DNA from: Thermoanaerobaculia bacterium
GTDB taxonomy: Bacteria > Acidobacteriota > Thermoanaerobaculia > Multivoradales > JAHEKO01
Reading direction: 5' to 3'
Length of the DNA stretch: 64,000 bases
Assembly: GCA_947259195.1 (NCBI GenBank)
Contig: CAMYLC010000155.1
Span: 16,899-80,898, forward strand
The notes under the pieces are model-generated. The model did no database searches and had not been told where the DNA came from. It saw nothing but the letters and a program-made list of their open reading frames with translations. The position numbers and the translations under genes were made by a program. Of this stretch, positions 11,636 to 63,853 are shown one piece after another (position 1 is the stretch's first letter; each line of letters begins with the position of its first letter).

Positions 11636-11679
11636 TATTGTCGGGCTCCCTGAGGATCGGGGCCAAGGATATCCCAGGC

Positions 11680-13029: not shown

Positions 13030-13103
13030 TTCCGGTGCCGTCTCGACGCGGGGATCTTACCTGGAACGGTGTTGGTTCGAGTTGCCTCGAGACAGGCGCG
13101 TGT

Positions 13104-13132
13104 TTGCTGTGTAGGTTACCTGCCCTTACAAT
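13104..13132 (+). promoter_or_regulatory. candidate sigma70-type promoter for the M1 peptidase gene
   Basis: TTGCTG (13104-13109), a 17-nt spacer, then TACAAT (13127-13132). This would give a very short leader if ATG 13144 is the start. Confidence 0.3.
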
Positions 13133-13143
13133 GGCTCCGACAG

Positions 13144-40267: not shown

Positions 40268-40269
40268 GA

Positions 40270-41232
40270 TTACCTCCTCTTGAAGTCGAGACCTAGAGAT
40301 TCGTCCATCGATTTTCGAACCGTGAGCACTGGACATGGGGCCTTCTGTATGACTCTCTCAGCGGTGCTTCCCAAGAGAACGTGGGCCAGCCCGGTTCGGC
40401 CATGGGTTCCCAGGACGATCCAATCGACTTGCGACTCGGTGGCCTGCTGGACAATGGCCTGAGGCGGGTACCCACCTCGGCTCACCGGCACGATGTCGAT
40501 TCCCAGCTCGGCCTCGAGAGCCTTGGTCTGCCTGTCGAGGCGACTGCCGACCTCTCTGGCAACGGCTTCCCAAACCGAGGCGTCAGGAGCCGCCGGGCCG
40601 TAGATGCTGTCCATGCTGAACTCGTAGGGTACGTGGTAGACATGCAGCAGCGTGACCTTTGGAGGTTCAGAGTCGGCACTGGTGAGAAGCTCGAGCGACG
40701 CCCTGAGCGCCCAGGTCGCCTCTTTCGAGAAGTCCGTGGCGAGCAGGATTCGGCGGATCCTCCCCGTTGGTGGGGGGTCTCCCGGATGAACCGTCAGCAC
40801 GGGGCAGGTCGCCCGCTGCACGACTCGCTCGGCAGTGCTCCCGAGAAGAGCGGGATCGAAGGGACGATGGCCGCTGGAGCCGAGAACCACCAGCTGGGCA
40901 CGTAGCCGTCGAGCTGCTGCAACGATGATCTCGGACGGTTGACCGATCTGGACCTCCCAAGTGGCGTCGACTCCCAGATGTTGCGTCTCCCGAGTGATCC
41001 GATCGAGGTGCTGTCTGGCAGCGTCCTCCAGCTGCACCGGTACCTTGGCCTCGAGCTCTTGGTAGTCCGTCGTCCAGCCGGCCAGATTCAAGGCATGGAC
41101 CAGATGGAGGGAATAGCCCTTCTCGCTGGCGACCTCAACGGCCCAGCGCACTGCCGCATTCGCGGTCTCGGAGAGATCGGTGGCAGCAACGACCGTCCCC
41201 GGCTGGGACGGTGAAGTATCGGAACCAGGCAT
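40270..41232 (-). CDS. tandem universal stress protein (two UspA domains)
   Basis: Two copies of the Usp pattern ending in LVVLGSSGHRPFDPALLGSTAERVVQRATCPVLTV and WIVLGTHGRTGLAHVLLGSTAERVIQKAPCPVLTV. Confidence 0.85.
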   Translation of the reverse strand: MPGSDTSPSQPGTVVAATDLSETANAAVRWAVEVASEKGYSLHLVHALNLAGWTTDYQELEAKVPVQLEDAARQHLDRITRETQHLGVDATWEVQIGQPSEIIVAAARRLRAQLVVLGSSGHRPFDPALLGSTAERVVQRATCPVLTVHPGDPPPTGRIRRILLATDFSKEATWALRASLELLTSADSEPPKVTLLHVYHVPYEFSMDSIYGPAAPDASVWEAVAREVGSRLDRQTKALEAELGIDIVPVSRGGYPPQAIVQQATESQVDWIVLGTHGRTGLAHVLLGSTAERVIQKAPCPVLTVRKSMDESLGLDFKRR

Positions 41233-41433: not shown

Positions 41434-41946
41434 TCAGTTGCCTCCGCCACCCGAGTCGGGCTTCGCTCGACGATGTGGGCGTCCCCGGTTGCCTCGAGGG
41501 CGAACGGTCTCTCGTGCGGTTTTGAGAGCTTCGAACTTCTCGGCCTGGTCGGGTGTGAGAGTCGATGCCAGCTGGTTGTCCAGGTCCGACCGACCACGAT
41601 GTATGGCCTCGGTGTGTCGATGCATGGTCAAGGCGAGACTTCCCAGCTCGGCGAGGTCCGGATTCTCGGTCTCCGCCAGGTCCCGGAATTGCTGCCTGAG
41701 CTCGGCGAGATCCTGCCACTCTTTTCGCGTCGTCTCCCGGTGGCTGTCGAGGATGCCTTCCCACTCGACCAGCTGTCCATCGGTCAGCTCGAGGTAGTCG
41801 GCCGCAATTTCGAGGCGCCGTTCGCCACCGGGGTAGCGCCCCTCTTCGGGGCCATGAAAGCCTTCGGCACCAGGCGGCTGAGCGCATAGCGCCACGGGTA
41901 GGATCATCAGGCCGATGAGAGTGATAGTCAGTGTTCTGTATCGCAT
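41434..41946 (-). CDS. Spy/CpxP-like periplasmic protein (LTxxQ motifs)
   Basis: ATG at 41946. Signal peptide MRYRTLTITLIGLMILPVALCA. LTDGQ and LTPDQ motifs. Basic, Gly-rich C-terminus. Confidence 0.6.
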   Translation of the reverse strand: MRYRTLTITLIGLMILPVALCAQPPGAEGFHGPEEGRYPGGERRLEIAADYLELTDGQLVEWEGILDSHRETTRKEWQDLAELRQQFRDLAETENPDLAELGSLALTMHRHTEAIHRGRSDLDNQLASTLTPDQAEKFEALKTARETVRPRGNRGRPHRRAKPDSGGGGN

Positions 41947-42143
41947 ATCCGGGTCTCCTATTCTATGTTTCGGGTTCCGTTCATTGGTTTTCGAACCTGG
42001 CTCTTGATCTGGCGCCTGTACATGAAACACGGCAGGTCTGGGATTCCTGCGCTGCGAGAGAGATAGAGAAGACTGCCGGAAATGGCTGGCTTTTCGCTAA
42101 ACTAGTTTCCAGCCAGCTCTCCAATCTTGATGGAGGTCGAGTC

Positions 42144-43544
42144 ATGAGTCCAGTCCAAGTAGCCACAGAGAAGATGAGTGGAGTGGACCACGCGTGGTTG
42201 CGGATGGATGAACCTGCCAACCTGATGATGATCAACGGTGTACTCTTCTTCGATGATCCTCTCGACCTGAAAACGGTAAAACGTGCGTTGGAGGAACGAT
42301 TGATCTCGATCCCACGCTTCCGCCAGCGAGTAGTCCCGTCCGGAAATCAGCGGTTTTCATGGCAGCTCGATCCGGGCTTCGATATCGAGGCCCATGTGGT
42401 CGAAGAGTTCTTGCCGTCGCCAGGAGACGATGCCGACCTCCAGGACCTGGTAAGCAGTTGGATGAGCTCCCCTCTCGACCGCTCTAGACCCTTGTGGATG
42501 TGCCATCTGATTCAGAACCACCGGGGAGGCTCGGCGCTCCTCTGGCGGCTCCACCACTGCATGGGGGATGGCATGGTCCTCATGCTGGTACTTCTCTCAA
42601 TGATGGAGTTGATGCCGCCGGGAGAGGTAGAAGGCCAGGAGGCGCCGGAATCCGCCAACCCGCTCAGGGCCCTGTTTGGCCAGAATCCCCCGAGCAAGAA
42701 GGAGGCCAGCGGCTATATTCAAGAGCTGATGCCAGGTGCGGCTCGGCTGTTGACGGGCCCGGCCGAGAAGCTCGCATCGTTGAGCACGTGGATCAAGAGT
42801 GGAGTATTCGTTCCCACCTTCGGGCGAATGGCGGTTCGGCTTTCTGATCCACGCACGTTGTTCAAGGGAACCCTCGGGGTGGCGAAGAGAGCGGCCTGGT
42901 CCGCCCCGGTATCCCTAGAAGAAGTCGGCAGAGTGCGGGAGGCAATCGGTGGCACGCTGAACGACGTTTTGACCAATGCTGTCGCCGGTGGACTGAGGCG
43001 CTATCTCGTCAGCAAGGGGGAGGTCAGCAAGCAGCTGAGCTTTCGAGCCATCGTCCCGGTGAGCTTGAGGCCGTTGGAAAAGATGGCACAGCTCGGCAAC
43101 CAGTTCGGCCTTGTCTTCCTCTCGCTGCCGGTAGGCATCGAAGATCCCAGAGAGCGGCTGGCGGAGCTCCGCCGCCGCATGGGTCGACTGAAGCACTCCT
43201 TCGAGCCTGTGGTGGTTCTTCAGGTGCTGGGCGCCCTGGGCGCCTCGCCGAAGACCATTCAGCAACTTGTGGTGAGGATCTTCGGCACCAAGGGAACGGC
43301 TGTCCTTACCAATGTCCCAGGTCCACGGGAAACGCTGTACTTCACGGGCAAGCCGATGCGGGACTTCGTCCTCTGGGTGCCGCAATCGGGCAGACTGGGG
43401 ATGGGTATCGCCATCAGCAGTTACGCGGGAAACGTGCGTGTCGGCATCGTCACCGACGAAGGGCTGGTCGCCGACCCCGAGACCATCGTAGCCGGATTCC
43501 ACGAGGAGTTCTCGGCAATGCTGGACCTCGCTGAGAGAGACTGA
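42144..43544 (+). CDS. wax ester synthase/diacylglycerol acyltransferase (WS/DGAT) family
   Basis: ATG at 42144 with GGAGG at 42132-42136. Catalytic HHxxxDG motif in LHHCMGDG. N-terminus DHAWLRMDEPANLMMI is typical of the family. Confidence 0.85.
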   Translation: MSPVQVATEKMSGVDHAWLRMDEPANLMMINGVLFFDDPLDLKTVKRALEERLISIPRFRQRVVPSGNQRFSWQLDPGFDIEAHVVEEFLPSPGDDADLQDLVSSWMSSPLDRSRPLWMCHLIQNHRGGSALLWRLHHCMGDGMVLMLVLLSMMELMPPGEVEGQEAPESANPLRALFGQNPPSKKEASGYIQELMPGAARLLTGPAEKLASLSTWIKSGVFVPTFGRMAVRLSDPRTLFKGTLGVAKRAAWSAPVSLEEVGRVREAIGGTLNDVLTNAVAGGLRRYLVSKGEVSKQLSFRAIVPVSLRPLEKMAQLGNQFGLVFLSLPVGIEDPRERLAELRRRMGRLKHSFEPVVVLQVLGALGASPKTIQQLVVRIFGTKGTAVLTNVPGPRETLYFTGKPMRDFVLWVPQSGRLGMGIAISSYAGNVRVGIVTDEGLVADPETIVAGFHEEFSAMLDLAERD

Positions 43545-43574
43545 CTCGGGCGACACCTGTTCGAGGTCGATTTC

Positions 43575-44810
43575 ATGGAGCTCTTACGCGATCTCGATTT
43601 CTGGAAATACGTCTCGATCCCGTTCGTGGCGGGAATCGTCGGCTGGGCTACCAACTGGGTGGCCATTAAGCTGACCTTTCTGCCGTTGGAGTTCCGCGGC
43701 ATCCGTCCGTACTTGGGGTGGCAGGGGATCATTCCGTCGAAGGCAGGCAAGATGGCCGGGATCTTTGCGGAATCCACCATGTTTCGTCTCGGGACGCTGG
43801 GCGAGATCTTCCGCCATATGGATCCGGAGGCGATGGCCGATCACATTTCCGAGGTGATCGAGCCCCGTCTCGATGGCTACACTGACGAAGTCATGTTCTA
43901 CGGCGGACAAGGTGCGCTGTGGCGCTCCCTGCCATCGATGGTCAAGAGCCGTATCTACTCCAGAGTGCGCGATGAGATGCCCGCCCTGGTGCACGATCTG
44001 ATGCAGGAGATAGGTGAGCACATCGAGGATCTGATGGATTTCAAACACATGCTGGTCACCCTGCTCGAAGGGGACAAGGTTCTCCTCAACCGTCTGTTCA
44101 TCGAGTCGGGTGAAGAGGAGTTCAAGTTCATCATTCGGTCCGGTCTCTACTTCGGTTTCATCTTCGGTCTCGCTCAATTGGCCTTCTGGATCTTCTACAA
44201 GGGCTGGTGGGTGCTGCCGTTCTTCGGAGGGTTGGTCGGCTATGCCACGAACTGGATTGCCATCAATCTGATATTCCGCCCTTTGCATCCGAAGAAGATC
44301 GGGCCGTGGACGGTTCAGGGCCTCTTTCTGAAGAGGCAACGAGAGGTGGCGGGTGTGTGGACCCATCTCGTCACGCGTGAGGTGGTAACCCTGCATCAAA
44401 TCATCGAGGAGATGTTGACAGGCCCTGAGTCGGACAAGGTCGAAGCGCTCATCAAGAAGCACATCGAGCCCATTGCAGACGAGGCTCTGGGGAGCTTCCT
44501 GCCGGCTGCCCAGCTCACGGTTGGCTCCTCACGGCTGGTGGACATCCGTCAGGCTGCGGGAGACAAGGCGGTCGAGGTTTCGATCGAGTCTTTCAAGCAC
44601 TGGGGCTTCAATGAGGATCGGGCTGAAGTCCTCGGCGAGCTGCTGCAAGAGAGGATGGCGGACCTGCCGCCGGAGGAGTTCCAGGACCTGTTGCGACCCT
44701 GCTTTCAGGAAGACGAGTGGAAGCTCATTCTGATGGGTGGGGTGCTCGGCCTGCTGGCGGGCCTGGCGCAGCTGGTCTTTGTCTTCGGTGGCCTGGGATC
44801 CGGATTCTGA
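43575..44810 (+). CDS. DUF445-like membrane protein
   Basis: N-terminal WATNWVAIKLTFLPLEF...GIIPSKAGKMA and a second YATNWIAINLIFRP block, resembling the DUF445/YheB family. Confidence 0.65.
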   Translation: MELLRDLDFWKYVSIPFVAGIVGWATNWVAIKLTFLPLEFRGIRPYLGWQGIIPSKAGKMAGIFAESTMFRLGTLGEIFRHMDPEAMADHISEVIEPRLDGYTDEVMFYGGQGALWRSLPSMVKSRIYSRVRDEMPALVHDLMQEIGEHIEDLMDFKHMLVTLLEGDKVLLNRLFIESGEEEFKFIIRSGLYFGFIFGLAQLAFWIFYKGWWVLPFFGGLVGYATNWIAINLIFRPLHPKKIGPWTVQGLFLKRQREVAGVWTHLVTREVVTLHQIIEEMLTGPESDKVEALIKKHIEPIADEALGSFLPAAQLTVGSSRLVDIRQAAGDKAVEVSIESFKHWGFNEDRAEVLGELLQERMADLPPEEFQDLLRPCFQEDEWKLILMGGVLGLLAGLAQLVFVFGGLGSGF

Positions 44811-50713: not shown

Positions 50714-52036
50714 TCAGGCAGGCACCAGTTCGGGCTCCTTGACCGTTGCGGACTCCTTCACCACGCGCTCTTCGAGTGGCACGAACGGGCGTTTCGTTGC
50801 GCCAAGATAGATCTGGCGCGGCCGGCTGATCTTGGCCTTGGGATCGTCTCTACCCTCCTTCCACTGGGCGATCCAGCCTGGCAGGCGACCCAACGCGAAC
50901 ATGACTGTGAACATCTCCGTGGGAATGCCCATGGCGCGATAGAGGATACCGCTGTAGAAGTCCACGTTCGGGTAGAGCTTGCGCTCGACGAAGAACGGAT
51001 CTTCGAGGGCGATGCGCTCCAGGTTCTTGGCAATCTCGAGCAGCGGATCGGTCGTCCCAAGCTCAGCCAGCACGTCGGCAGCAGCCTCCTTGAGAATCGT
51101 CGCACGCGGGTCGAAGTTCTTGTAGACCCGGTGACCAAAGCCCATCAGTCGGAAGTCGGACTCGGGGTCCTTGGCCATATCGACATACTTCTGGTAATCG
51201 CCGCCGTCGGCCCGAATCTGCTCGAGCATCTCGATGACCTTCTGATTGGCGCCTCCATGCAAGGGTCCCCAAAGGGCAGAGATACCAGAGGAAATCGAGG
51301 CGAAGAGATTCGACAGACTGCTGCCGACCATCCGCACCGTCGAGGTGCTGCAATTCTGCTCATGATCCGCGTGCAGGATCAACAGGAGGTTGAGAGCGCG
51401 GTCCATGACGTCGGGCACCACATAGGGTTCCGACGGGACGGCGAACATCATGTGCAGAAAGTCCTCGGTGAAGGAGAGATCGTTGCGTGGATAGACGAAA
51501 GGCTGGCCGATTGACCTCTTGTAGGAGAACGCTGCGATGGTCTTGACCTTGGCGAGAAGCCGAATGATGTTGAGGTCTACATCTTCGTCGACTGCGCCCC
51601 TCGTGTAGTAGGCAGACAGAGAGGCCACCATGGCGGAGAGCACCATCATCGGATGTGCCGTAGGTGGGAATCCCTGGAAGAAATCCTTCATCGCCTCGTG
51701 AATCATGCTGTGGTGGGTCAACTTGTCGCTGAAGTCGCGCAACTCGTCTACGGTTGGCAGGTGCCCATAGACCAGCAGATAGCAAACTTCCGCGAAGCTC
51801 GCCGACGCGGCTATCTCCTCGATGGGATAGCCCCGGTACTGGAGGATTCCCTTCTCACCGTCGATGAAGGTGATCGTGCTGGTGCAGGAGCCCGTGTTGC
51901 CGTAACCCGGGTCGAGGCCGATTGCACCGGTGGTGTTTCGGAGCGTCGTGAAGTCGATTCCGACTTCGTCTTCCGATCCCACAAGGACGGGGAACTCGTA
52001 GTCTTGGCCGTCGAGAGACAATTTCGCTTTCTTCAT
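50714..52036 (-). CDS. gltA: citrate synthase (type II-like, 440 aa)
   Basis: ATG with GGGAGGAA upstream. Citrate synthase signature GFGHRVYKNFDPRA, with LHADHEQNCSTST and catalytic His/Asp contexts. Confidence 0.95.
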   Translation of the reverse strand: MKKAKLSLDGQDYEFPVLVGSEDEVGIDFTTLRNTTGAIGLDPGYGNTGSCTSTITFIDGEKGILQYRGYPIEEIAASASFAEVCYLLVYGHLPTVDELRDFSDKLTHHSMIHEAMKDFFQGFPPTAHPMMVLSAMVASLSAYYTRGAVDEDVDLNIIRLLAKVKTIAAFSYKRSIGQPFVYPRNDLSFTEDFLHMMFAVPSEPYVVPDVMDRALNLLLILHADHEQNCSTSTVRMVGSSLSNLFASISSGISALWGPLHGGANQKVIEMLEQIRADGGDYQKYVDMAKDPESDFRLMGFGHRVYKNFDPRATILKEAAADVLAELGTTDPLLEIAKNLERIALEDPFFVERKLYPNVDFYSGILYRAMGIPTEMFTVMFALGRLPGWIAQWKEGRDDPKAKISRPRQIYLGATKRPFVPLEERVVKESATVKEPELVPA

Positions 52037-52254: not shown

Positions 52255-52286
52255 GGTTAACTAAATGACTGGTTAACTAAATGACT
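52255..52286 (+). repeat. perfect tandem duplication of a 16-nt unit (GGTTAACTAAATGACT x2), candidate MarR operator
   Basis: Copies at 52255-52270 and 52271-52286 are identical. Each contains the palindrome GTTAAC and an ATG. The ATG of the second copy is the marR start (52281). The first opens a 3-codon mini-ORF, ATG ACT GGT TAA. Confidence 0.6.
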
Positions 52287-52916
52287 CAGGCAGGATTGGC
52301 ATCCTCGCAGAGCAGTACTCGAGTTCCGGATGGCAACGGACGCGACGAGGTCTTCCGCCTCCTGCGCTACTCGCATATCTTCGCCTCGGTCGTCCGGGAG
52401 TTCCTGGAGCTGCAGCTCCTGCATGAAGTCAGCGATGAAGATCTCTCCCTGTCGCAGCTTCATCTGCTGAAGCTGATCACGCTGGATGGCGAGCATCAGA
52501 TGGGGCAGGTAGCGGAGTTCTTGGGAATCAGCCCGCCTGCGGCGACCAAGAATATCGACAAGATGGAGCGTCTGGGACTGGTCAGTCGAATACCGTCGAC
52601 CGGCGATCGGCGAGCGACTCTCTTGCAGCCCAGTCGACAGGGACGCAAGCTGGTCAGTCGCTACGAAGCCTTGAAGGAAGACCGCCTGGCGCCGGTTCTC
52701 GAAGGCTTCAACAAAAAGGAGCTGAAGCAGATGGCAGACCTGTTGGAGCGGTTTTCACTGCGGCTCATTCACGCCCAGGAACCGATGTCACAGATCTGTC
52801 TGCGTTGTTCGGCGTATTACGACGAACACTGCCCGATCCCCCATCTCCAGAACGGCTGCCCGTACAAACAGATCAGGCAGCTCGGGGGAGCCGCACAGTG
52901 CGAAGGGGAGGGTTGA
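52281..52916 (+). CDS. MarR family transcriptional regulator with a Cys-rich C-terminal extension
   Basis: Winged-helix block LSLSQLHLLKLITLDGEHQMGQVAEFLGISPPAATKNIDKMERLGLVSRIPSTGDRRA. The C-terminal extension is CLRCSAYYDEHCPIPHLQNGC (C-x2-C-x7-C-x8-C). Confidence 0.8.
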   Translation: MTQAGLASSQSSTRVPDGNGRDEVFRLLRYSHIFASVVREFLELQLLHEVSDEDLSLSQLHLLKLITLDGEHQMGQVAEFLGISPPAATKNIDKMERLGLVSRIPSTGDRRATLLQPSRQGRKLVSRYEALKEDRLAPVLEGFNKKELKQMADLLERFSLRLIHAQEPMSQICLRCSAYYDEHCPIPHLQNGCPYKQIRQLGGAAQCEGEG

Positions 52917-53006: not shown

Positions 53007-53327
53007 ATGAGGTATTGGCGAGATCCTCTGGATGCGGGGCAGATCGAGGCCCCCGGGGGGGATGTGCACATCCTCGCGGATCGATGCAAGGGCTGCGGGT
53101 TCTGCGTCGAGTATTGCCCCAGGCAGGTGCTCGAGATGTCCCGGGAGTTCAATCGTAAGGGCTATCACCCACCAGAGATTGTCGACAGCCGAGCCTGCGT
53201 CAACTGCGGGCTTTGCGAGATGATCTGTCCCGAGTTCGCGATCTTCTGTCTCGAGCTGGCTGCATCGACTGAGAATCCCTCGAGAGTCTTGGCATCGCCA
53301 GGTGCCGAGGCCGAGGAGGCGCGCTGA
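53007..53327 (+). CDS. korD: 2-oxoacid:ferredoxin oxidoreductase delta subunit (2x[4Fe-4S] ferredoxin)
   Basis: ATG at 53007 with GGGAGG 5 nt upstream (the track's GTG 52971 is the alternative). CKGCGFCVEYCP and CVNCGLCEMICP motifs. The stop overlaps the korA ATG (TGATG). Confidence 0.8.
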   Translation: MRYWRDPLDAGQIEAPGGDVHILADRCKGCGFCVEYCPRQVLEMSREFNRKGYHPPEIVDSRACVNCGLCEMICPEFAIFCLELAASTENPSRVLASPGAEAEEAR

Positions 53328-54484
53328 TGAAGGCCGACCCGGCAGGTGTCCTCACCGGCTCTCACTACCTCGATGGTGACTTCGCCTGTGGCGAAGGGGC
53401 CATGGCGGCGGGCTGCCGGTTCGTCGCCGGATATCCCATCACCCCATCCACTGAAGTCGTCGAGCGTATCTCCAGACGATTCCCCACGCTCGGCGGCACC
53501 TTCATCCAGATGGAGGACGAGCTGGCCAGCATGGCGGCGGTGGTGGGTGCTGCCTGGACCGGCAGCAAAACAATGACCGTGACGAGCGGTCCAGGCTTCA
53601 GCCTGATGATGGAGAATATCGGCCTCGCCGCGATGATGGAGACGCCCTGCGTTGTAGTCAACGTGCAGCGGGGTGGGCCTTCCACCGGGTTGCCGACGAT
53701 GGTTGGGCAGGGGGATGTGATGCAGGCCCGCTGGGGCTCTCACGGAGACTACGAAGTGATCGCCTTGAGCCCTCAATCGCCCCAGGAGGCCTTCGACCTC
53801 ACCATCGACGCTTTCAATCTGGCCGAGATCTACAGGGTGCCCGTCATGTTCCTCATGGACGAGTGCGTCGGTCACATGACCGAAAAGGTGGTGATTCCCG
53901 AGGCAGAGGCGATCGAGATCGAGCCGCGACGACTGACCGAGAAGTCACCGGAGAGCTTCGATCCCTATCAAGTTGAAGAGGGTCAGCTGCCCGAGTTCGC
54001 CCGTGCGGGGGACGGCTACCGGTTCCATACCACAGGCTTGACCCACGATGAGCACGGCTATCCGGAGATGAGCGTCGAATGCCAGGAGGTGAACGTCAGC
54101 CGCCTGGTCGGGAAGATCCGCGACAATGCCGACAGCATCGTCCGCTTCGAAGAGGAGGGGGTGGAGGACGCGGATGTCGTCGTAGTGTCCTACGGCATCA
54201 CCGCCAGAGTCGCCAGGCTGGCTGTCGAAGAGGCCCGTTCACAGGGCCTCAAGGTGGGCTTCCTTCGCCTGGTGGTGATCTGGCCGTTCCCGGAGAAGCG
54301 GATACGAGAGCTGGCTGGCTCCGTTGGAGCCTTTGTCGTGCCTGAGATCAATTACGGACAGATCGCTTTGGAAGTCGAGCGCGCCGCGGCTGGACAGGCC
54401 GTGACCTGGCCGGTCCACCATGCCGGCGGTGCCGTGCACTCGCCCGATGCAATCACTGAAATCATCATCAAGGCGGCCGTATGA
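53327..54484 (+). CDS. korA: 2-oxoacid:ferredoxin oxidoreductase alpha subunit
   Basis: GAMAAGCRFVAGYPITPSTEV...MEDELASMAAVVGAAWTGSKTMTVTSGPGFSLM...VVVNVQRGGPSTGLPT are the canonical OFOR alpha blocks. Confidence 0.9.
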   Translation: MKADPAGVLTGSHYLDGDFACGEGAMAAGCRFVAGYPITPSTEVVERISRRFPTLGGTFIQMEDELASMAAVVGAAWTGSKTMTVTSGPGFSLMMENIGLAAMMETPCVVVNVQRGGPSTGLPTMVGQGDVMQARWGSHGDYEVIALSPQSPQEAFDLTIDAFNLAEIYRVPVMFLMDECVGHMTEKVVIPEAEAIEIEPRRLTEKSPESFDPYQVEEGQLPEFARAGDGYRFHTTGLTHDEHGYPEMSVECQEVNVSRLVGKIRDNADSIVRFEEEGVEDADVVVVSYGITARVARLAVEEARSQGLKVGFLRLVVIWPFPEKRIRELAGSVGAFVVPEINYGQIALEVERAAAGQAVTWPVHHAGGAVHSPDAITEIIIKAAV

Positions 54485-55380
54485 CTGTGTCAACGAATCC
54501 GACTGTCGGCCAGGAAATGGAGCACCCCAGTGCTCCGCTCCTGAGGATGGAGCGCATTCCTCATGTCTGGTGCCCCAGCTGCGGCATCGGCACGGTGGTC
54601 AAGTGTTATGCCACGGCGCTCGAGCGCAGCGGAGTGGATCTCGACAAAGTCTCGGTGGTGTCGGGTATCGGCTGCTCCGGTCGCGTGGCCGGCTATCTCA
54701 AGCTGGACGGTTTTCACACCACTCATGGAAGAGCCATTCCTTTCGCCACAGGGCTCAAATTGGGACGTCCCGAGCTGCTTGTAACGGTGATCTCGGGCGA
54801 TGGCGACCTCGTAGGCATTGGCGGAAATCACTTCATTCACGCGGCGCGACGCAATCTCGACCTGCTGGTCATTCTGATCAACAACTTCATCTATGGAATG
54901 ACCGGAGGGCAGAACGCCCCGACGACGCCCCTGGGAGCCAAATCGTCGACGATGCCCTTCGGCAACTTCGAAACACCTTTCAATCTCCCGCACCTGGCAG
55001 CCTCCAGTGGTGCTTCCTATGTGGCCCGTTGGACCTGTCTGCACATACGGCGCCTGACGTGGTCGATCGAGGAGGCAATCGGCAAGAGGGGCTTCCGATT
55101 CATCGAGGCGGTAGCGCCCTGCCCGACGCTTTACGCCCGCCTGAACAAGCTGGGGAGCGGTCTCGACGCGATGCGCTTCTACCACGACACGGCCGAGATC
55201 CGGAACGGCGCCGACACCCGTGAGGTCGACGTCTCGTTCCAGAGTCCGATCATCTGCGGCAAATTCGTCGACGAGGAGCGACCGACCTTCCTCGATCTCA
55301 TGCACGACCACTACAGCAATCGGCTGGGTGATGGCTACGTCCCGATGCCACCGGAAGGGGGAATGCTCCATGAGCGGTAG
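54481..55380 (+). CDS. korB: 2-oxoacid:ferredoxin oxidoreductase beta subunit (TPP-binding)
   Basis: WCPSCGIG, GIGCSGR, and the TPP motif GDGDLVGIGGNHFIHAARRNLDLLVILINNFIYGMTGGQ. ATGA overlap with korA. Confidence 0.9.
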   Translation: MTVSTNPTVGQEMEHPSAPLLRMERIPHVWCPSCGIGTVVKCYATALERSGVDLDKVSVVSGIGCSGRVAGYLKLDGFHTTHGRAIPFATGLKLGRPELLVTVISGDGDLVGIGGNHFIHAARRNLDLLVILINNFIYGMTGGQNAPTTPLGAKSSTMPFGNFETPFNLPHLAASSGASYVARWTCLHIRRLTWSIEEAIGKRGFRFIEAVAPCPTLYARLNKLGSGLDAMRFYHDTAEIRNGADTREVDVSFQSPIICGKFVDEERPTFLDLMHDHYSNRLGDGYVPMPPEGGMLHER

Positions 55381-55963
55381 GACCGAGATCCGGATCACCG
55401 GTTTCGGCGGGCAGGGTGTCGTGCTTGCCGGTCATATCATCGGTCGCGCCTGTGCTATTCATGCCGGTCGTCAGGCCACCATGATTCAGAGCTTCGGCCC
55501 GGAGGCCAGGGGCTCGGCCTGCAGCGCAACACTCGTCGTCTCCGACCGCGAAGTCTTGTACCCCTACATCCAGCGTCCCGACATCTTTGTCGTAATGTCC
55601 GGTGAGGGCTACGAGAAGTACGGGCGAGAGCTCAAGGAAGAAGGGACCCTGGTCTTCGAACAGGATCTCGTCCATCCCAGGACGGTGGAGGGACAGAGAG
55701 CCTGCGGAGTGCCCTCTACCCGTATCGCCGAATCCCTGGGTCGAACGATTGTCCAGAACATCGTCATGGTTGGATTCTTCGCCGGCGTTACGGGCCTGGT
55801 TGCAGATGAAGCCATGCGCGATGCCGTCAGGGGTTCGGTGCCAGCAGGCACTGAAGATCTCAATCTCGAGGCCTTCGAGAAGGGCCTGGAGTACGCACGG
55901 AAGTCGCCCGGTGAGTCCTCCGTGAGCGTCTCTGAGCCGAGCCTGGAGGAGGTGAGTCCATGA
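55370..55963 (+). CDS. korC: 2-oxoacid:ferredoxin oxidoreductase gamma subunit
   Basis: ATG at 55370 (11-nt overlap with korB). IRITGFGGQGVVLAGHIIG...FGPEARGSAC is the typical gamma-subunit N-terminus. Confidence 0.85.
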   Translation: MSGRTEIRITGFGGQGVVLAGHIIGRACAIHAGRQATMIQSFGPEARGSACSATLVVSDREVLYPYIQRPDIFVVMSGEGYEKYGRELKEEGTLVFEQDLVHPRTVEGQRACGVPSTRIAESLGRTIVQNIVMVGFFAGVTGLVADEAMRDAVRGSVPAGTEDLNLEAFEKGLEYARKSPGESSVSVSEPSLEEVSP

Positions 55964-58371
55964 GAGCGCCCGTCTGCAATCTTGGAAGTGGTGCTCCCGA
56001 GCTGGCGGGTTGCAGCCTATTGATCCCTGATGTGCAGTCCGAGCCGTTGCCGATCTTGCCGGTCGAGCCGGCTCCCTGCACTCAGGCATGTCCGGCGGGA
56101 ATCAACGTCAAGGCCTACGTCTCGCTGATCGCCGAGAGCCGTTTTGCGGAAGCCCTGCAGGTTGTTCGGCAGCATTGTCCACTGCCCGGAATTTGCGGTC
56201 GGATCTGTCATCACCCCTGTGAAGCGGTCTGCCGCAGGGGAACGGTCGACGAGCCCATCGCCATCCGCGCCCTGAAGCGGTTCGTCTCCGACCTGGCGAT
56301 CGATGAGGCACCCCCTGCTGCCTGGCCGCTGGTCGACAAGGCCTCCAAGGTCGCGGTCGTGGGGTCGGGCCCAGCTGGCTTGACTGCCGCCTACGACCTG
56401 CGTCGCGCCGGGTATCCGGTCACCCTTTTCGAAGCTGAGCCGGAAGCAGGAGGCATGCTGAGGTATGGGATCACCGAGTATCGCCTGCCTCGTGATGTTC
56501 TGGATTCTGAGATCGAGTACCTCGGTGGGGTCGGTTTGGAGTTCGAGACCGGCTGTCGCGTCGGCCTCGACCTGCAGTTGGAAGAGATGCTCGAGCAGGG
56601 GTTCGTTGCCACCTTGCTGGCCGTCGGCGCTCAGCGCGGACGGCCGCTGAGAGTCCCCGGAGCAGAGTCCTGTGCGGGAGTCGAGGACGCCTTGGCTTTC
56701 TTGCGTCGCGTGAACCACGGTGACCGATCACCGGTGAAGGGTCGAGTCGTGGTGATTGGCGGTGGCTCGACGGCTGTCGAGGCGGCTCGCTCGGCACTGC
56801 GCCTGGGAGCCGAATCCGTGGACATCGTCTACCGGCGCTATCGCGAGGAGCTGTTGGCTGATGAGGAGGAGATCCGGGCAGCGGAGTCGGAAGGCATAGC
56901 ATTCAGATTCCTGGTAGCCCCTAGCCGCCTCCTCATGGGGAACGGGGCTCTTCAGGCCCTGGAGTGCGTCAGGGTCGGACTGGGCGAACCCGACGCTTCA
57001 GGCCGTCGCAGACCCATCCAGATTCCAGGCAGCGAGTTCAGGGTGGAGGCCGATCGAGTCTTGGCTGCGATCGGTCAGGCGGCCGACCTGGATTTCATGC
57101 CCGCAGAAATCCTCGAACAGCTGGCGGAGAACGAGTTGTTGCGGACCGATCCCCTGACTGCGATGACTGGCCTCCAAGGGGTGTTCGCAGCCGGAGATGC
57201 CGTCTCGGGTCCGGCAACGGTGATCGATGCGATAGCCGCCGGCCATAAGGCCGCCGAGGCGATTCATCACTATCTGAAGGAGGGGAGACCCTCGATAGCG
57301 CCGCAACCCCCGGAGATGCGCGCACCGGTGGAGTACGGCCTGCCGGATTCTCCGCCACTGACGGCGGAGAGGGGCCGACCAGAGCTTCGATGCCTGAAGT
57401 CTGGAGCGGAGTTCGCGGAGGTGGAGAGGCCTTTTGGTGAAGCCGAAGCCGTGGACGAGGCTCGACGATGTCTGCGTTGTGGACCCTGCGGCGAGTGTCG
57501 TGTCTGCGCCCCGTCCTGCCGCCGCCGCCACGTCCTGCTGAGCTTTCCGGATGCCGATGGAACGGCCAGCCGGACCCCGGTCCTGCTGCGGGCTCCAGGC
57601 AACATTGCCATGGGTTTGAGCTCTCGATCGACGGCACAGGCCCAATTGCTTCCGGAGAGCCGCCCGCGACTGCTGCGCGAGGTGTCAGCTAGCGAAGGTG
57701 ACCTCGTGGAGGTAGCCCCTTTGAGGGTTCAGATCGTCGAGGAGCAATGCCGGGGATGCGGTCGCTGCGTCGAGGTCTGTCCATTCGAGGCAATCACGAT
57801 GAGCGGTACTGAGCCGGAGGGCACAGCTCGGGTCGAACCCTCTCTCTGTCGTGGCTGCAACCTCTGCTGTGCTGTGTGTCCCACCGCGGCAGCGGAACCG
57901 AACGCCCTGTCTGTCGCTTGGTGGGGATCCAGGCTTTCCGATGCTTTCGACGGTCGGGCCGAGGCAGTCAATGATGCCGGGCCGATCGTCGTCCTGGCCT
58001 GCCAAAGGCGAGCCGGATCGGTGGAACCCACGCTCTATCAGCACTCGGCTCACGTCGAGGTGATCCGGTTCCGATGTGTCGGTCAGGTGGACGCCGGAAT
58101 GCTGGTCGAGCTCTACCGCAGAGGGGCGAGCAGTGTGGTCGTCGCTGGCTGTCAGACCGAACGATGTCGTTTCGGTGAGGGTGCCGAGCTCGCCACTGAA
58201 CAGGTGGCCAGGGCGGAACAGCTGCTCTCCCTCATGGGGGGTGGCACGCATCGTTTGAGGTCGGATTGGTCTGGAGACCGTGCCGGCGATCCCGTCGAGC
58301 GGCCGGTTTTACGCATGATTGCGGAAGTCTTCGGGGCGCGTCCGGGCCTGTCCGGGCAGCAACCCTCGTGA
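55960..58371 (+). CDS. fusion protein: GltD/NfnB-like NAD(P)H-dependent FAD/Fe-S oxidoreductase, Cys cluster, 2x[4Fe-4S] ferredoxin and a divergent MvhD-like domain
   Basis: ATGA overlap with korC. GltD-type blocks: CTQACPAGINV, GICGRICHHPCEAVC, VAVVGSGPAGLTAAYDL and AGGMLRYGITEYRLP. Then CLRCGPCGECRVCAPSC, CRGCGRCVEVCPFEAI and CRGCNLCCAVCP. The C-terminal IVVLACQ...IRFRCVGQVD...VVVAGCQTERCRF resembles MvhD. Confidence 0.8.
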   Translation: MRAPVCNLGSGAPELAGCSLLIPDVQSEPLPILPVEPAPCTQACPAGINVKAYVSLIAESRFAEALQVVRQHCPLPGICGRICHHPCEAVCRRGTVDEPIAIRALKRFVSDLAIDEAPPAAWPLVDKASKVAVVGSGPAGLTAAYDLRRAGYPVTLFEAEPEAGGMLRYGITEYRLPRDVLDSEIEYLGGVGLEFETGCRVGLDLQLEEMLEQGFVATLLAVGAQRGRPLRVPGAESCAGVEDALAFLRRVNHGDRSPVKGRVVVIGGGSTAVEAARSALRLGAESVDIVYRRYREELLADEEEIRAAESEGIAFRFLVAPSRLLMGNGALQALECVRVGLGEPDASGRRRPIQIPGSEFRVEADRVLAAIGQAADLDFMPAEILEQLAENELLRTDPLTAMTGLQGVFAAGDAVSGPATVIDAIAAGHKAAEAIHHYLKEGRPSIAPQPPEMRAPVEYGLPDSPPLTAERGRPELRCLKSGAEFAEVERPFGEAEAVDEARRCLRCGPCGECRVCAPSCRRRHVLLSFPDADGTASRTPVLLRAPGNIAMGLSSRSTAQAQLLPESRPRLLREVSASEGDLVEVAPLRVQIVEEQCRGCGRCVEVCPFEAITMSGTEPEGTARVEPSLCRGCNLCCAVCPTAAAEPNALSVAWWGSRLSDAFDGRAEAVNDAGPIVVLACQRRAGSVEPTLYQHSAHVEVIRFRCVGQVDAGMLVELYRRGASSVVVAGCQTERCRFGEGAELATEQVARAEQLLSLMGGGTHRLRSDWSGDRAGDPVERPVLRMIAEVFGARPGLSGQQPS

Positions 58372-58382
58372 GGAGTGGTGCG

Positions 58383-59573
58383 ATGAGAGACCTCATCCAG
58401 CTCAAGCAATCGACGCAAGCTGCACTCTGCCTGGAGTGCGGTAAATGCAGCACGATGTGCCCGCTGGCGCGCTTCGGAGGGTTCTCGGCGGCTCGCATGA
58501 TGTCGATCCAGGACCCGGAGGCGGAGATTGACGGCCATGCGGCCGCAGTGCAGCGTTGCCTGACTTGCGGCGCCTGTGAAGTGCGATGCCCGCAGGGTGT
58601 TCGCTACACAGAGTTCATTCTTGGATTGCGCCCCGAGCTACCCGAAAATAGCCGATGGTCGTGCCCGCATGGAGCGGTGTTTCAGGAATCGGCCCGCTGG
58701 GCTGCAGAGGGGTCGGTCAATGGCCGCAATACGGCCTGGTTGGAGGATGACCTGATAGTGGCAGAGGAGGGCGAGGTTGGGCTGTTCGTGGGTTGCCTGC
58801 CTCTTTTCGATGTGGTTTTCGGGTCCGAGCTGGACGTCCGCATGGTTGAGATTGCGCGCTCCGCCGTCAGACTGCTGAATCACCTGGGCATTGAGCCGGT
58901 GGTCGTGGCGGACGAGCGCTGTTGTGGCCATGACCTCTTGTGGAGTGGTGAAGAGGGAACGTTCGAAAAGCTGGTTGTGGCCAACACCACGGCTTTTCAA
59001 GAGCGCGGCGTTCGCCACCTCCTGACGACGTGCGCGGAGTGTTGTCGCACCTGGAGCCTCGACTACCCGCGCTATGTGGAGAGCTATCAGCCTCGAGTTC
59101 AGCACATCTCGGAGTTCCTCGCTGAGCGGGTGGAGAGCAACGAGCTGAGATTCCGGGATGTCGGGGAGAGAGGAGCCATGACATTCCACGATCCGTGCAG
59201 GCTGGGCAGGCAGCTGGGAGTCTTCGACGCTCCCAGGACGGTCATGGCCTCGCTGCCGGGAAGCGAAGTCGTGGAGATGGAGAAGTCGGGCGCCGATGCG
59301 CAGTGCTGCGGTACCCCTGGTTTCATCCAATGCAATCGAGACTCGCGACGACTTCAAGCTCAGAGATTGGAGAGTGCCGCGGCGACGGGCGCCACAAAGA
59401 TGGTAACCGCCTGTCCCAAATGTTTGATTCATTTTCGCTGTGCTCAGGCCGAGGATCGTCTCAATGAGCGGCAGGGCGCAGCCGAGCTTCAAATCGAAGA
59501 CCTCACGGTCGTCGCAGCAAGTCTGCTGATGACAAAAAGTGAAACGGAGAAGGACTTGCCGTCGAAGTCCTAG
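58383..59573 (+). CDS. heterodisulfide reductase HdrC-HdrB fusion (2x[4Fe-4S] plus two CCG domains)
   Basis: ATG at 58383 with GAGGAG upstream. HdrC-like CLECGKCSTMCP and CLTCGACEVRCP. Two CCG domains (VGC...ERCCGHD...TCAECC and DPC...AQCCGTPG...ACPKCL). Confidence 0.85.
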   Translation: MRDLIQLKQSTQAALCLECGKCSTMCPLARFGGFSAARMMSIQDPEAEIDGHAAAVQRCLTCGACEVRCPQGVRYTEFILGLRPELPENSRWSCPHGAVFQESARWAAEGSVNGRNTAWLEDDLIVAEEGEVGLFVGCLPLFDVVFGSELDVRMVEIARSAVRLLNHLGIEPVVVADERCCGHDLLWSGEEGTFEKLVVANTTAFQERGVRHLLTTCAECCRTWSLDYPRYVESYQPRVQHISEFLAERVESNELRFRDVGERGAMTFHDPCRLGRQLGVFDAPRTVMASLPGSEVVEMEKSGADAQCCGTPGFIQCNRDSRRLQAQRLESAAATGATKMVTACPKCLIHFRCAQAEDRLNERQGAAELQIEDLTVVAASLLMTKSETEKDLPSKS

Positions 59574-59588
59574 AGACAGGAGAGGTTC

Positions 59589-62069
59589 ATGACAGAGCAA
59601 GCCTTGCGTATCGGTGTCTTCGTGTGCGATTGCGGGCTGAATATCGCCGGCACAGTAGACACAGAAGAGGTTTCCCGCTTTGCCAGCGAGTTGCCCGACG
59701 TCGTGGCAGTCGTTCGCAATCGCTACACCTGTGCCGATCCGGGCCAGAAGGAAATCAAGAAGGCCGTCGCGGAGCACGATTTGAATCGAGTCGTGGTCGC
59801 ATCCTGTACCCCGAAGATCCACGAGCCTACCTTCCGTCACTGTGTGGAAGATGCCGGATTGAATCCCTATCTGGTCGAGATGGCCAATATTCGTGAACAC
59901 TGCAGCTGGGTTCATATTCATGATCGCGAGGCAGCCACCGAGAAGGCGAAAGACCTCGTGCGGAGCGCTGTCGGGCGAGCGCGGGTGTTGGAGCCCCAGG
60001 ACGAGAAGGTCTTTCCGGTGAGCGATGCGGCATTGGTCATCGGCGGGGGAGTGGCTGGCATTCAGACGGCTCTCGAGCTGGCGGATGGTGGACACCAGGT
60101 GTATTTGGTGGAAAAGGAGCCTTCCATAGGCGGGATCATGGCCGCGCTGGACAAGACCTTCCCGACCATGGACTGCTCCATATGAATTCTCGGCCCTAAA
60201 ATGATGGATGCCGGTCGGCATCCCCGCATCGAGTTACTGGTCGATTCCGAGGTCGAGGACATCACGGGCTTCGTAGGCAACTACCGAGCCCTGGTACGGC
60301 GCCGTGCACGCTTCGTCGATTCCAACGAATGTACCTCCTGTGGAGAATGCGAAAAGGTGTGCCCCGTTGTGGTTCCGGACGAGTACCAGGAAGGTCTTTC
60401 TTCGCGCAAGGCCATCTACCTACCGTTTCCACAGGCGGTGCCGTCGGCCTTCAGCCTCGACGGCGAATCCTGCCTGGGATTCAATCCGATCGCCTGTGGC
60501 AAGTGCCTGGAGGTCTGCGACAAGAAGTGCATCGACTTCGATGCCAAGGACGAGCTCATGGATCTCGAAGTGGGAACGGTCGTCGTGGCCACCGGCATGG
60601 AGGTCTACGACCCACGAGAGAACGACGAGTACGGCTACACCCGATTTCCGAACGTCGTCACCAGTATGGAATTCGAGAGACTGATCAATGCCGGCGGCCC
60701 CACCGACGGAGAGCTGGTGCGGCCTTCCGACCGGGCAGTGCCTCTGAGAGTCGGATTCGTCCAGTGTGTCGGCTCTCGATCGGTCCAACGAGGCGTGCCC
60801 TACTGCTCGAACATCTGCTGCATGAACACCATCAAGGAGACGCTGCTGTTGGCGGATCACTATCCGGAGAGTCGGTCGACGGTCTACTACATGGATATCC
60901 GGGCCTTCGGCAAGGGCTTCGAGGACCTGTATCGGCGCAGCCGCGAAGCGGGCGTGCGCTACATCAGGGGATTGCCTGGAACTGTGAAGGAGGCACCCGG
61001 TAGCAGCGATCTCATCGTCGAGGTCGAGAACACGCTGACCGGAACGATGGAGGAGCACCGGCTGGACATGCTCGTCCTGGCGGTGGGGATGGTACCGCGG
61101 CGAGCCAACGGCAACGGCAAGCGCAGCATTGACGAGATCCTGAGCCTCTCGCACACCTCCGATGGCTTTGTCATGGAGGCTCACCCCAAGCTCAAGCCGG
61201 TGGATGCCCCGACCCGTGGGGTCTATTTCGCTGGCTGCGTCGAAGCGCCCAAGGACGTCAAGGACACCGTAACACAGGCCGGGGCGGCAGCCGGAAGAGC
61301 AGCCAACCTGTTGGCTGCCGGGCAGGTTCGAATCGAGGCGATTACGGCGACCCTCGATGCGGACCGCTGTCAACTTTGCACCATCTGTGCCCGGGTCTGT
61401 CCGTTTCACGCCATCGAGCAGGCCGACAAGAAGAAAGGTCTTCTGCCGCATTTTGTGGAGGCAGCCTGCGCCGGCTGTGGCACCTGCGCGGCAGAGTGTC
61501 CTTTCGATGCCATCGACATGCGTCACTTCGCCGACCAACAGGTCCTGGCGCAGATCGACGGCATTCTGGCCGACGATCCCATGCAGAAGATTGTCGGCTT
61601 CGCCTGTAATTGGTGCTCCTACGCCGGCGGCGACAACGCAGGAACCTCGCGGCTCCAGTATCCGGCCTCCGTTCGCCTGATCCGGACCATGTGCAGTGGA
61701 CGGGTCGATCAGGCGTTCATCTGGCACGCTTTTCGGAAGGGGGCCCCTCTGGTGTTGGTGTCGGGCTGTCACTTCACAGACTGCCACTACATCGACGCCG
61801 TGACCTGGACTCAGCGCCGGATTGAGAAGATCTGGTCGAAGATGGAGAAACTCGGTATCCGCCCCGAGCGGCTGCAGTTGGAGTGGATCTCGGCGGCGGA
61901 AGGTCAGAAGTTCGCTCGCGTCATGCAGGAGCTGGACAGCATGTTGCGGCAGGTAACGGCGCAAGAGGTCGAGGAGAGCATGCAGATTCTCGCCAAGGAG
62001 TCGCTGGGAGGGAGTCCCCCCATTCTCCCGAAGAAAGGTAGAGAACAGGTTCTCCCGATCCAGAACTGA
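59589..62069 (+). CDS. hdrA: heterodisulfide reductase subunit A fused to an MvhD domain; selenocysteine (UGA) at codon 199
   Basis: Track ORFs 59589-60185 and 60201-62069 share one frame and are separated only by TGA 60183-60185. The joined sequence reads ...[63 protein letters not shown]. HdrA N-terminal Cys motif [12 protein letters not shown]. Ferredoxin motifs [24 protein letters not shown] and [13 protein letters not shown]-terminal MvhD block [15 protein letters not shown]...CSGRVD...[10 protein letters not shown]. Confidence 0.8.
60203..60230 (+). promoter_or_regulatory. candidate bacterial SECIS hairpin downstream of the hdrA UGA
   Basis: GGAUGCC (60206-60212) pairs with GGCAUCC (60217-60223) around the apical loop GGUC (60213-60216). 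A lower helix GAU (60203-60205) / AUC (60228-60230) lies across a 4-nt 3' bulge. The stem starts 21 nt after the UGA. Confidence 0.55.
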
Positions 62070-62968: not shown

Positions 62969-63853
62969 ATGCTGACGAAGGAGCGATACGTGGACACCTT
63001 TCTGGAGCTGATACGCCGGGCCTCTGCCGAATTGCCGAGCGATGTCGTGCAGGCTCTGCAGCAGGGCAGAGACAGAGAGGCGAGCGACAGCTTGGCGCGG
63101 CAGGCTCTGGTCACGATTCTGGACAACGTCGATCTGGCCAGAGCCAAGTCAGCCCCGATTTGTCAAGACACAGGAACACCCGTTGCCTGGGTCAGCTATC
63201 CCGAGGGGACCAGCACCCGCCTGCTCGAAGAGGCCATGCACGAGGCGGTGAAGGAGGCGACTGCGAAGAGTTATCTGCGGCCGAATGCAGTCGATACGCT
63301 GACCGGCAAGAACACCGGTGATGGCGCGGGCCGAGCGATTCCTTTCCTGCATTTCGAAGAATGGGACGAGCCCAAAGTCGAGGTCAGATTGATCCTGAAG
63401 GGTGGAGGCTGCGAGAACGTGGGGGTCCAGTACAAGCTGCCTGACACCGGTCTCCAGGCGGGACGCGATCTGGAAGGTGTCCGTCGCGTTGTCTTGGACG
63501 CGGTGGTTCAGGCGCAGGGGAAGGGTTGCGCGCCCGGCGTTCTGGGTATTTGTATTGGGGGCGACAGGGTTTCCGGATTCTCGGAATCGAAATGTCAGCT
63601 ATTGCGGCCCCTATCGGACACCAATCCCATGGCGGAGTTGGCCGAGTTGGAGGAGCGATTGCTGAAGGAGGCCAACGAGTTGGGGATCGGCCCGATGGGA
63701 TTCGGCGGGAAAACCACGGTTCTTGGAGTCAAAGTCGGTGTGCTGGACCGACTGCCAGCTTCGTACTTCGTGACCATCAGCTACATGTGTTGGGCTGATC
63801 GGCGCGCTGCCGTCAGTCTCGATGAGGAAGGAGCGGCGACATGGCTGAACTGA
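62969..63853 (+). CDS. class I (Fe-S) fumarate hydratase / tartrate dehydratase, alpha subunit
   Basis: GAAGGAG RBS. PICQDTGT motif and GGGCENV, typical of Fe-S hydro-lyase alpha domains. Confidence 0.85.
   Translation: MLTKERYVDTFLELIRRASAELPSDVVQALQQGRDREASDSLARQALVTILDNVDLARAKSAPICQDTGTPVAWVSYPEGTSTRLLEEAMHEAVKEATAKSYLRPNAVDTLTGKNTGDGAGRAIPFLHFEEWDEPKVEVRLILKGGGCENVGVQYKLPDTGLQAGRDLEGVRRVVLDAVVQAQGKGCAPGVLGICIGGDRVSGFSESKCQLLRPLSDTNPMAELAELEERLLKEANELGIGPMGFGGKTTVLGVKVGVLDRLPASYFVTISYMCWADRRAAVSLDEEGAATWLN

Follow-up and report, generated by a model that had tools for sequence, protein, structure and literature searches.

A predicted selenocysteine-encoding hdrA2 gene with a conserved hairpin downstream of its internal UGA codon in a Thermoanaerobaculia bacterium (Acidobacteriota)

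Subunit A of heterodisulfide reductase (HdrA) is listed as a selenoprotein family with the motif CxxU, where U stands for selenocysteine (Sec), in reviews citing the NCBIfam model NF040770 (PMC13188914, PMC9312934). A survey published in 2006 recorded 16 bacterial genes for Sec-HdrA, from Deltaproteobacteria and from Clostridia, and described such genes in glpC-hdrA-frhD-frhG-frhA hydrogenase operons (PMC1794560). Fusions of HdrA with MvhD have been noted in Methanosarcina and Archaeoglobus (PMC2702500). In the Hdr-Vhu-Fwd complex of Methanococcus maripaludis, as seen by cryo-electron microscopy, the corresponding residue is Sec197, which apparently forms a selenylsulfide with a cysteine (Cys) between flavin adenine dinucleotide (FAD) and cluster A3, and whose role is open (PMC13518236). 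Here we analyse a stretch of 64,000 nucleotides (nt), hereafter the window, from a Thermoanaerobaculia bacterium (GenBank assembly GCA_947259195.1, contig CAMYLC010000155.1, positions 16,899 to 80,898), in which positions 59589–62069 of the forward strand hold, with high confidence, a single gene for an 826-residue HdrA-MvhD protein of the ‘HdrA2’ type, with codon 199, UGA, predicted to be recoded to selenocysteine. An initial annotation made from the sequence letters had proposed a recoded hdrA at this place and had described HdrA as a selenoprotein family of Methanococcales and some deltaproteobacteria; the literature bears this out and adds the Clostridia (PMC1794560, PMC9312934, PMC13188914).

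The two open reading frames (ORFs) from which the gene is assembled, 59589–60185 (198 aa) and 60201–62069 (622 aa), lie in a common frame, their starts being 612 nt (3 x 204) apart. Read from the ATG at 59589, the frame contains a single internal TGA, at 60183–60185, ahead of the terminator TGA at 62067–62069; a second ATG follows the internal TGA by 15 nt, at 60201. Read through, 59589–62069 comprises 826 codons and a stop, free of further stops or frameshifts, and both the coordinates and the peptide across the junction agree with those of the initial annotation. The adjacency of the two ORFs is by itself no evidence, because the window, with a G+C content of 61%, contains more than 120 pairs of same-frame ORFs, each 60 aa or longer, in which one TGA joins the two members, most of these pairs being off-frame noise; other long pairs of this kind, for instance 10553–13675 on the reverse strand and 41928–44810 on the forward strand, turned out to be merely adjacent genes or off-frame ORFs. 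What raises the 59589/60201 pair above chance is that homology crosses the internal TGA unbroken. In a phmmer search against the PDB, residues 6–662 matched HdrA of Methanothermococcus thermolithotrophicus (5odc_A) with an E-value of 1e-230 in one ungapped-looking stretch, residues 666–788 matched the MvhD subunit 5odc_D (E 3.7e-39), and PDB MvhD chains in general aligned with the C-terminal domain at E-values from 1e-35 to 1e-39. The NCBIfam model NF040770, ‘CoB-CoM heterodisulfide reductase HdrA2’, covers residues 7–794 with 1145.2 bits (curated cutoff 1100), from model position 1 to 776 of 777. The complete HdrA architecture is thus recognizable in the Pfam matches and the 5odc_A and 5odc_D alignments: an N-terminal Fe-S region, a FAD fold with the GxGxxG signature (FAD/NAD Rossmann motif, residues 149–196), several inserted and C-terminal 4Fe-4S ferredoxin domains, and a fused FlpD/MvhD domain at residues 668–788 (PF02662, E 7.7e-45), corresponding to positions 61590–61952. 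The expected division of these domains, with the N-terminal Fe-S region and the FAD fold before the TGA and the ferredoxin inserts and MvhD/FlpD after it, is likewise what the Pfam and 5odc_A alignments give. A Shine-Dalgarno-like sequence, AGGAGAGG, at 59578–59585, precedes the start codon at 59589. The HdrD/GlpC-like neighbour of the gene scores below every NCBIfam cutoff, and since the host is a bacterium, the name ‘heterodisulfide reductase’ rests on homology only.

Aligned with 5odc_A, the internal TGA takes the place of Cys197, which is the second member of the CxxC/CxxU pair (DKTFPTNDCSIC-ILAPKM). From the letters it had been assigned precisely there, to the DCSxC(U)IL motif's second Cys. 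The predicted selenocysteine at codon 199 (60183–60185) would be paired with Cys196 (codon at 60174–60176), which is a Cys codon in 95 of the 97 related genes that we collected and TGA in the other two. These genes come from scanning GTDB genomes, one for each species, which yielded 80 loci (L001–L080) with 56–92% identity, and the codon of interest was located in them by its motif and by tblastn. Cys-containing homologues show what occupies the column in the absence of UGA: 26 of the related genes have TGC or TGT there, and at least 90 full-length database proteins among the matches listed carry Cys. The window protein and its archaeal counterparts (M. maripaludis with Sec197, M. thermolithotrophicus with Cys197, 5ODC chain A) are alike in fold and cofactor motifs over residues 6–662 and in the recoded residue itself, which comes second in the C-x-x-C/U pair beside the bifurcating FAD. 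They differ in that neither of the two archaeal proteins is an MvhD fusion, and in that the window host, as a bacterium, is not expected to make the heterodisulfide of coenzymes M and B (CoM-S-S-CoB). The HdrA2 proteins of Methanosarcina and Archaeoglobus represented by NF040770 share the HdrA-MvhD fusion, and the window protein passes the cutoff of that model, but the archaeal relatives that we found all carry Cys where the window gene has UGA. Two of the related loci, a Gemmatimonadota chromosome (CP070758.1; L064:10583-10594) and a metagenome-assembled genome (MAG) of Candidatus Stahlbacteria (L056:503-514), encode both members of the redox pair by TGA (MD-TGA-A-I-TGA-ILGP), which predicts a U-x-x-U pair replacing C-x-x-U; in L056 the loop of the hairpin described below is GGCA, not GGUC.

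Downstream of the UGA, the transcript can form a hairpin that we regard as the candidate selenocysteine insertion sequence (SECIS). It consists of a perfect 7-bp stem, GGAUGCC/GGCAUCC, closed by the apical loop GGUC (60213–60216); its 18 bases, at 60206–60223 of the forward strand, start 20 nt past the UGA, span positions +24 to +41 counted from the U of UGA, encode M-D-A-G-R-H-P and occur only once in the whole window. Among all 71 related genes with TGA at the codon of interest, at least six of the seven stem pairs are retained in 70 and the GGUC loop in 67, whereas in the 26 Cys-type genes just 2–6 of the seven stem positions pair. Neither the GGUC loop nor five of the stem pairs vary among the 58 aligned TGA genes; 99% of the stem cells are paired (compared with 25–57% when the 3′ partner is slid by 1–3 columns), and RNAalifold predicts the same helix. 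One stem pair, 29:36, covaries, being C:G in 31 genes, U:A in 23, U:G in three and C:A in one (Fisher p 6.5e-12, uncorrected for phylogeny); at the protein level this amounts to an Ala-to-Val replacement coupled with a silent change from CGG to CGA. The strongest evidence for the hairpin is the contrast in synonymous sites between the two sets of genes: third positions of codons +8 to +12 (D, A/V, G, R, H) have an entropy of 0 bits in the TGA genes, except at the covarying site, but of 1.8–2.0 bits in the Cys-type genes, and the codons flanking the hairpin vary equally at third positions in both sets. A SECIS had been expected just downstream of 60183, and the conserved, covarying hairpin at 60206–60223, with its frozen synonymous sites, answers to that expectation. 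In the manner of bacterial SECIS elements of the fdhF type, this stem-loop sits in the ORF close behind the UGA and carries a conserved G(U) in its apical loop.

In the archaeal counterparts from M. maripaludis and M. thermolithotrophicus, the SECIS sits in the 3′ untranslated region, unlike the window hairpin, which lies inside the coding sequence just past the UGA. The bacterial Sec-HdrA genes of Syntrophobacter fumaroxidans, Desulfobacterium autotrophicum and Moorella thermoacetica (PMC1794560, PMC2702500) resemble the window gene in family, in the CxxU motif and in the in-frame SECIS, and the hairpins of the Syntrophobacteraceae and Desulfatiglandales relatives in our set (L060, L050 and L066) are identical to that of the window. 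The SECIS of Escherichia coli fdhF, read from NC_000913.3, has the same GGUC apical loop and a similar stem (GGUUGCA/UGCACC).

Several points nonetheless weigh against recoding at this codon. The fdhF element contains a bulged U (U17), whereas the stem in the window is perfect, and the fdhF loop starts at +22 from the U of UGA, as against +31 in the window, 9 nt further. The bulged U is, however, a feature specific to the SelB of E. coli and not universal. The folding energy of the 68 nt after the UGA is, taken alone, unremarkable for their composition (z −0.87), and because the energy of the single sequence is not unusual, the case for the hairpin rests on the comparative data. Within these data, covariation concerns one of the seven pairs and was assessed by a test that takes no account of phylogeny. 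No SECIS family of Rfam matched, either across the whole window at the gathering score or within 60100–60350 at E≤10. Finally, tRNA-Sec, selA, selB and selD were not found in the 64-kb window by ARAGORN, Rfam, Pfam or tblastn; E. coli SelA, SelB and SelD gave no tblastn match there, and Pfam searches of about 50 ORFs of the window yielded neither sel genes nor a second selenoprotein. ARAGORN did report a 95-nt ‘tRNA-His (gtg)’ at 39931–40025 on the reverse strand, and odd long tRNAs have been reported in Acidobacteria (PMC5389517), but the call is most likely a false positive, as Rfam sees no tRNA there; it lies wholly within an ORF for a YbaK/ProX-type aminoacyl-tRNA editing domain at 39800–40336 (Pfam E 1.3e-28).

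Beyond the window, decoding genes were found next to several of the related hdrA genes. In L056, the Sec-type hdrA is directly followed by selB (L056:2422-4548; its product is 29% identical to the E. coli protein across 639 aligned positions) and by a tRNA-Sec (anticodon tca), after which comes a second Sec-type hdrA paralogue, so that the decoding genes are embedded in the hdr cluster. In L033 (1514-2437) and L051 (1657-2697), a selD homologue with 43–46% identity to E. coli SelD is located upstream of Sec-type hdrA, at a distance of about 8 kb. Acidobacteria were credited with selenoproteins as early as 2006, and our literature search returned no publication combining Thermoanaerobaculia with selenocysteine. 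Eight species-level Acidobacteriota genomes, including that of the window, retain both the UGA and the hairpin at 64–92% protein identity, a pattern that would be hard to explain without a working decoder.

The UGA form is widespread. It is present in 71 genes from 62 of the 81 sources (61 of the 80 loci, and the window) and in more than 15 phyla. Besides the window, the Acidobacteriota/Thermoanaerobaculia contribute seven species (L001, L002, L039, L041–L043 and L052); further TGA forms belong to KSB1, Calditrichota, Dehalococcoidia, Anaerolineae, Armatimonadota, Ignavibacteria, Gemmatimonadota, Planctomycetota, Neomarinimicrobiota, Krumholzibacteriota, Desulfobacterales, Desulfatiglandales, Syntrophobacteraceae and others. 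The archaeal relatives, from Bathyarchaeia and Thermoplasmata, all have Cys. Both halves of the gene are under strong purifying selection: the ratio of nonsynonymous to synonymous substitution rates (dN/dS) between the window and L001 is 0.062 for codons 1–198 and 0.082 for codons 200–826, and between the window and L085 it is 0.066 for the N-terminal and 0.049 for the C-terminal half. In current records, the gene appears in pieces, as the initial annotation had anticipated of standard gene callers. Among the matches listed, each of the 30 closest database proteins (91–100% identity) is a C-terminal fragment, with a length of 622 aa in 29 cases and of 613 aa in the other; they stem from independent NCBI, JGI, ENA and Logan assemblies, and one of them is a Thermoanaerobaculia bacterium entry labelled ‘hydrogenase iron-sulfur subunit’. 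In a 98%-identical relative (GCA_049665825.1) with synteny identical to that of the window, the called genes are of 198 aa and 622 aa.

A rival explanation that accommodates the same hairpin is that UGA is recoded to Cys instead of Sec, through a selC* tRNA(Cys) with a UCA anticodon and the SelB paralogue selB*. Such tRNAs together with selB* are known from Syntrophobacterales and Desulfobacterales, and suppressor-like allo-tRNAs from Acidobacteria (PMC5389517); among our loci, a selB-like gene follows a Cys-type hdrA in L075, a Syntrophobacteraceae MAG. Nevertheless, selC* is unreported in Acidobacteria, where allo-tRNAs only were described, and every genome with selC* in that study also carried the complete Sec machinery (PMC5389517). 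There is no selC*-type tRNA in the window. A UGA codon and a SECIS kept just for inserting Cys would seem a needless cost, given the TGC and TGT forms of sister lineages. Altogether, we consider Cys insertion very unlikely. The selB-like gene of L075 (12602-14503), which directly follows the Cys-type hdrA, might itself be a selB* paralogue; ARAGORN found no tRNA at this locus.

An equally slim chance can be given to the possibility that translation ends at the UGA and that the two polypeptides, of 198 aa and of 622 aa from the ATG at 60201, assemble as a split HdrA. The gene-caller and NCBI annotations do show two genes, an ATG lies 15 nt past the stop, and split hdrA genes (hdrA_N ... hdrA_C) are known in Deltaproteobacteria (PMC1794560). 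The ATG at 60201, however, is not preceded by a purine-rich site resembling a Shine-Dalgarno sequence (upstream letters CTCGGCCCTAAA), and the five codons that separate it from the TGA encode ILGPK, which is conserved protein in all relatives and plainly internal in the Cys forms. A split at this point would also forfeit the conserved redox Cys and cut the FAD domain, and it leaves unexplained the covarying hairpin and the synonymous sites frozen in the TGA form only. Both alternatives are thus far less probable than selenocysteine insertion, which accounts for the codon, its column and the hairpin together.

The remaining explanations fare worse still. An in-frame stop in a conserved gene, with no Sec machinery visible in the window, could be taken as the nonsense mutation of a pseudogene, but the TGA is kept in 71 genes of more than 15 phyla, dN/dS is 0.05–0.08 on both sides of the stop, other stops and frameshifts are absent and the synteny of the operon is intact, so that a pseudogene is extremely improbable. 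A sequencing or assembly error, or a genome-wide reassignment of TGA (e.g. to Trp or Gly), which has nothing but the stop in its favour, deserves no greater credence, for the same TGA recurs in independent NCBI, Logan, JGI and ENA assemblies and TGA terminates 18 of the 40 well-supported (Pfam-supported) genes of the window, including hdrA itself. The retention of the TGA in relatives, the low dN/dS and the use of TGA as a normal stop therefore exclude pseudogenization, assembly error and codon reassignment.

Evolutionary relationships were explored with a neighbour-joining tree, built without support values from a segment of about 580 residues around the Sec/Cys codon (150 codons upstream to 430 downstream). 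In this tree, the TGA forms fall into a single large clade of bacteria, with the Cys forms of archaea, Thermodesulfobacteriota and WOR-3 outside. Two small Cys groups, L011/L035 and L053/L075, are nested within the TGA clade, a placement consistent with reversions from Sec to Cys. The window gene groups with L001, L002, L043 and L052, beside KSB1 and Calditrichota, and the Sulfomarinibacter-type Thermoanaerobaculia fall elsewhere.

Several related genes deserve mention in their own right. Second HdrA-like paralogues, located about 5 kb upstream of the main match and likewise carrying TGA and the same hairpin, were seen at L005:4297, L008:5629, L028:3748, L039:5267, L042:5288, L064:5351, L056:4854 and L038:~1; the second paralogue of L029 is of the Cys type. 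Cys-type Chloroflexota genes (L011:10580, L035:10595, proteins P0031-P0120) that are nested among Sec-type genes retain the Sec-type peptide, and L011 has a decayed hairpin, GGATGCCGGCCGTCATGG, which resembles a fossil SECIS left after conversion of Sec to Cys. Contexts outside hdrA that combine a TGA, a hairpin with a GGUY loop and an open frame gave three weak matches across all loci, which we judged to be due to chance.

In the window, hdrA2 is the last gene of a co-directional run. It is preceded by a MarR gene (52281–52916), a four-subunit 2-oxoacid:ferredoxin oxidoreductase (delta, alpha, beta, gamma; 53007–55963, forward strand), whose alpha subunit matches NF006412 with 558 bits (cutoff 411), a gene for an 803-aa protein in which, according to Pfam and NCBIfam, an NfnB/GltD-like NAD(P)H flavoprotein, a dicluster ferredoxin and an MvhD-like domain are fused (55960–58371, forward strand), and a gene for an HdrD/GlpC-like subunit of the Cys form with two [4Fe-4S] motifs and two CCG domains (58383–59573, forward strand; CCG E 6.9e-27). 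The best NCBIfam match of the latter is TfrB, below its cutoff, and no NCBIfam cutoff is passed. In its C-terminal third, the NfnB-like protein is similar to the HdrA2 tail that contains ferredoxin and MvhD (NF040770 positions 565–763, E 1.8e-27), and it has a weak match to NF045663, ‘diclust_near_Sec’, a family named for its proximity to Sec genes. Unlike the described bacterial Sec-hdrA operons, this one associates hdrA with a 2-oxoacid:ferredoxin oxidoreductase and with NfnB-like and HdrD-like proteins and contains no hydrogenase.

The arrangement is not peculiar to the window. Judging by tblastn, the neighbours of hdrA in the 80 loci include the oxidoreductase subunits in 41–47, an HdrD-like gene in 51 and an NfnB-like gene in about 30. 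The place of the NfnB-like gene is taken, in several loci, by another HdrA paralogue that in most cases has TGA as well. The order oxidoreductase delta-alpha-beta-gamma, NfnB-like/MvhD or second HdrA, HdrD-like, HdrA2 is found at 53007–62069 of the window and in at least 41 of the 80 loci, and spans many bacterial phyla and, in part, Bathyarchaeia. No description of this oxidoreductase-Hdr module was found in the literature searched. A citrate synthase gene (50714–52036, reverse strand) flanks the cluster upstream and a gene for the alpha subunit of class I fumarase (62969–63853, forward strand) downstream, which places the Hdr module among genes of the tricarboxylic acid cycle; in relatives, the genes that come next are those of fumarase beta and of a protein with a PPDK_N domain (PF01326).

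With regard to mechanism, we envisage that SelB would bring Sec-tRNA(Sec) to the UGA, whereupon translation would run on to the true terminator at 62067. The product would bear a Cys196-x-x-Sec199 pair beside the electron-bifurcating FAD, at the position of Sec197 of M. maripaludis. The probable partners of HdrA2 are the two adjacent proteins, HdrD-like and NfnB-like/MvhD, together with the 2-oxoacid:ferredoxin oxidoreductase encoded nearby, and the module would probably perform flavin-based electron bifurcation or confurcation linking ferredoxin, with which the oxidoreductase is paired, to NAD(P)H and a thiol/disulfide-type acceptor. Such a complex is probable on the strength of domain content and synteny only.

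Since HdrA is an already established selenoprotein family, the window gene is a new member of that family, from Thermoanaerobaculia (Acidobacteriota), and not new biology; that HdrA has Sec at its CxxU site is knowledge some two decades old and would not surprise a specialist. More worthy of specialist follow-up are three side observations: how widespread and uniform the SECIS is, the variants with U-x-x-U, and the conserved oxidoreductase-Hdr module. It is possible, though we put it forward only tentatively, that the Sec form with its near-invariant SECIS (GGAUGYC-GGUC-GRCAUCC) prevails, and is probably ancestral, in a pan-bacterial HdrA2 clade spanning more than 15 phyla, and that the module constitutes an unstudied selenium-dependent bifurcating complex. 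If so, it would couple the oxidation or synthesis of 2-oxoacids to NAD(P)H and a thiol/disulfide acceptor, a U-x-x-U (diselenide) pair would occur in rare variants of it, and the module would be systematically invisible to current annotation because its key subunit is split. The set of Sec and Cys genes also lends itself, as a clean natural experiment, to asking what price the protein pays for a SECIS in its coding region, as M-D-A/V-G-R-H-P and its synonymous sites are frozen only together with UGA. For this lineage of Acidobacteriota, the finding implies the use of selenocysteine. More generally, as long as hdrA is recorded as fragments, metabolic reconstructions of Thermoanaerobaculia and other anaerobes will miss or mislabel a flavin-bifurcating subunit and, for the same reason, selenium dependence is under-counted in many anaerobic lineages.

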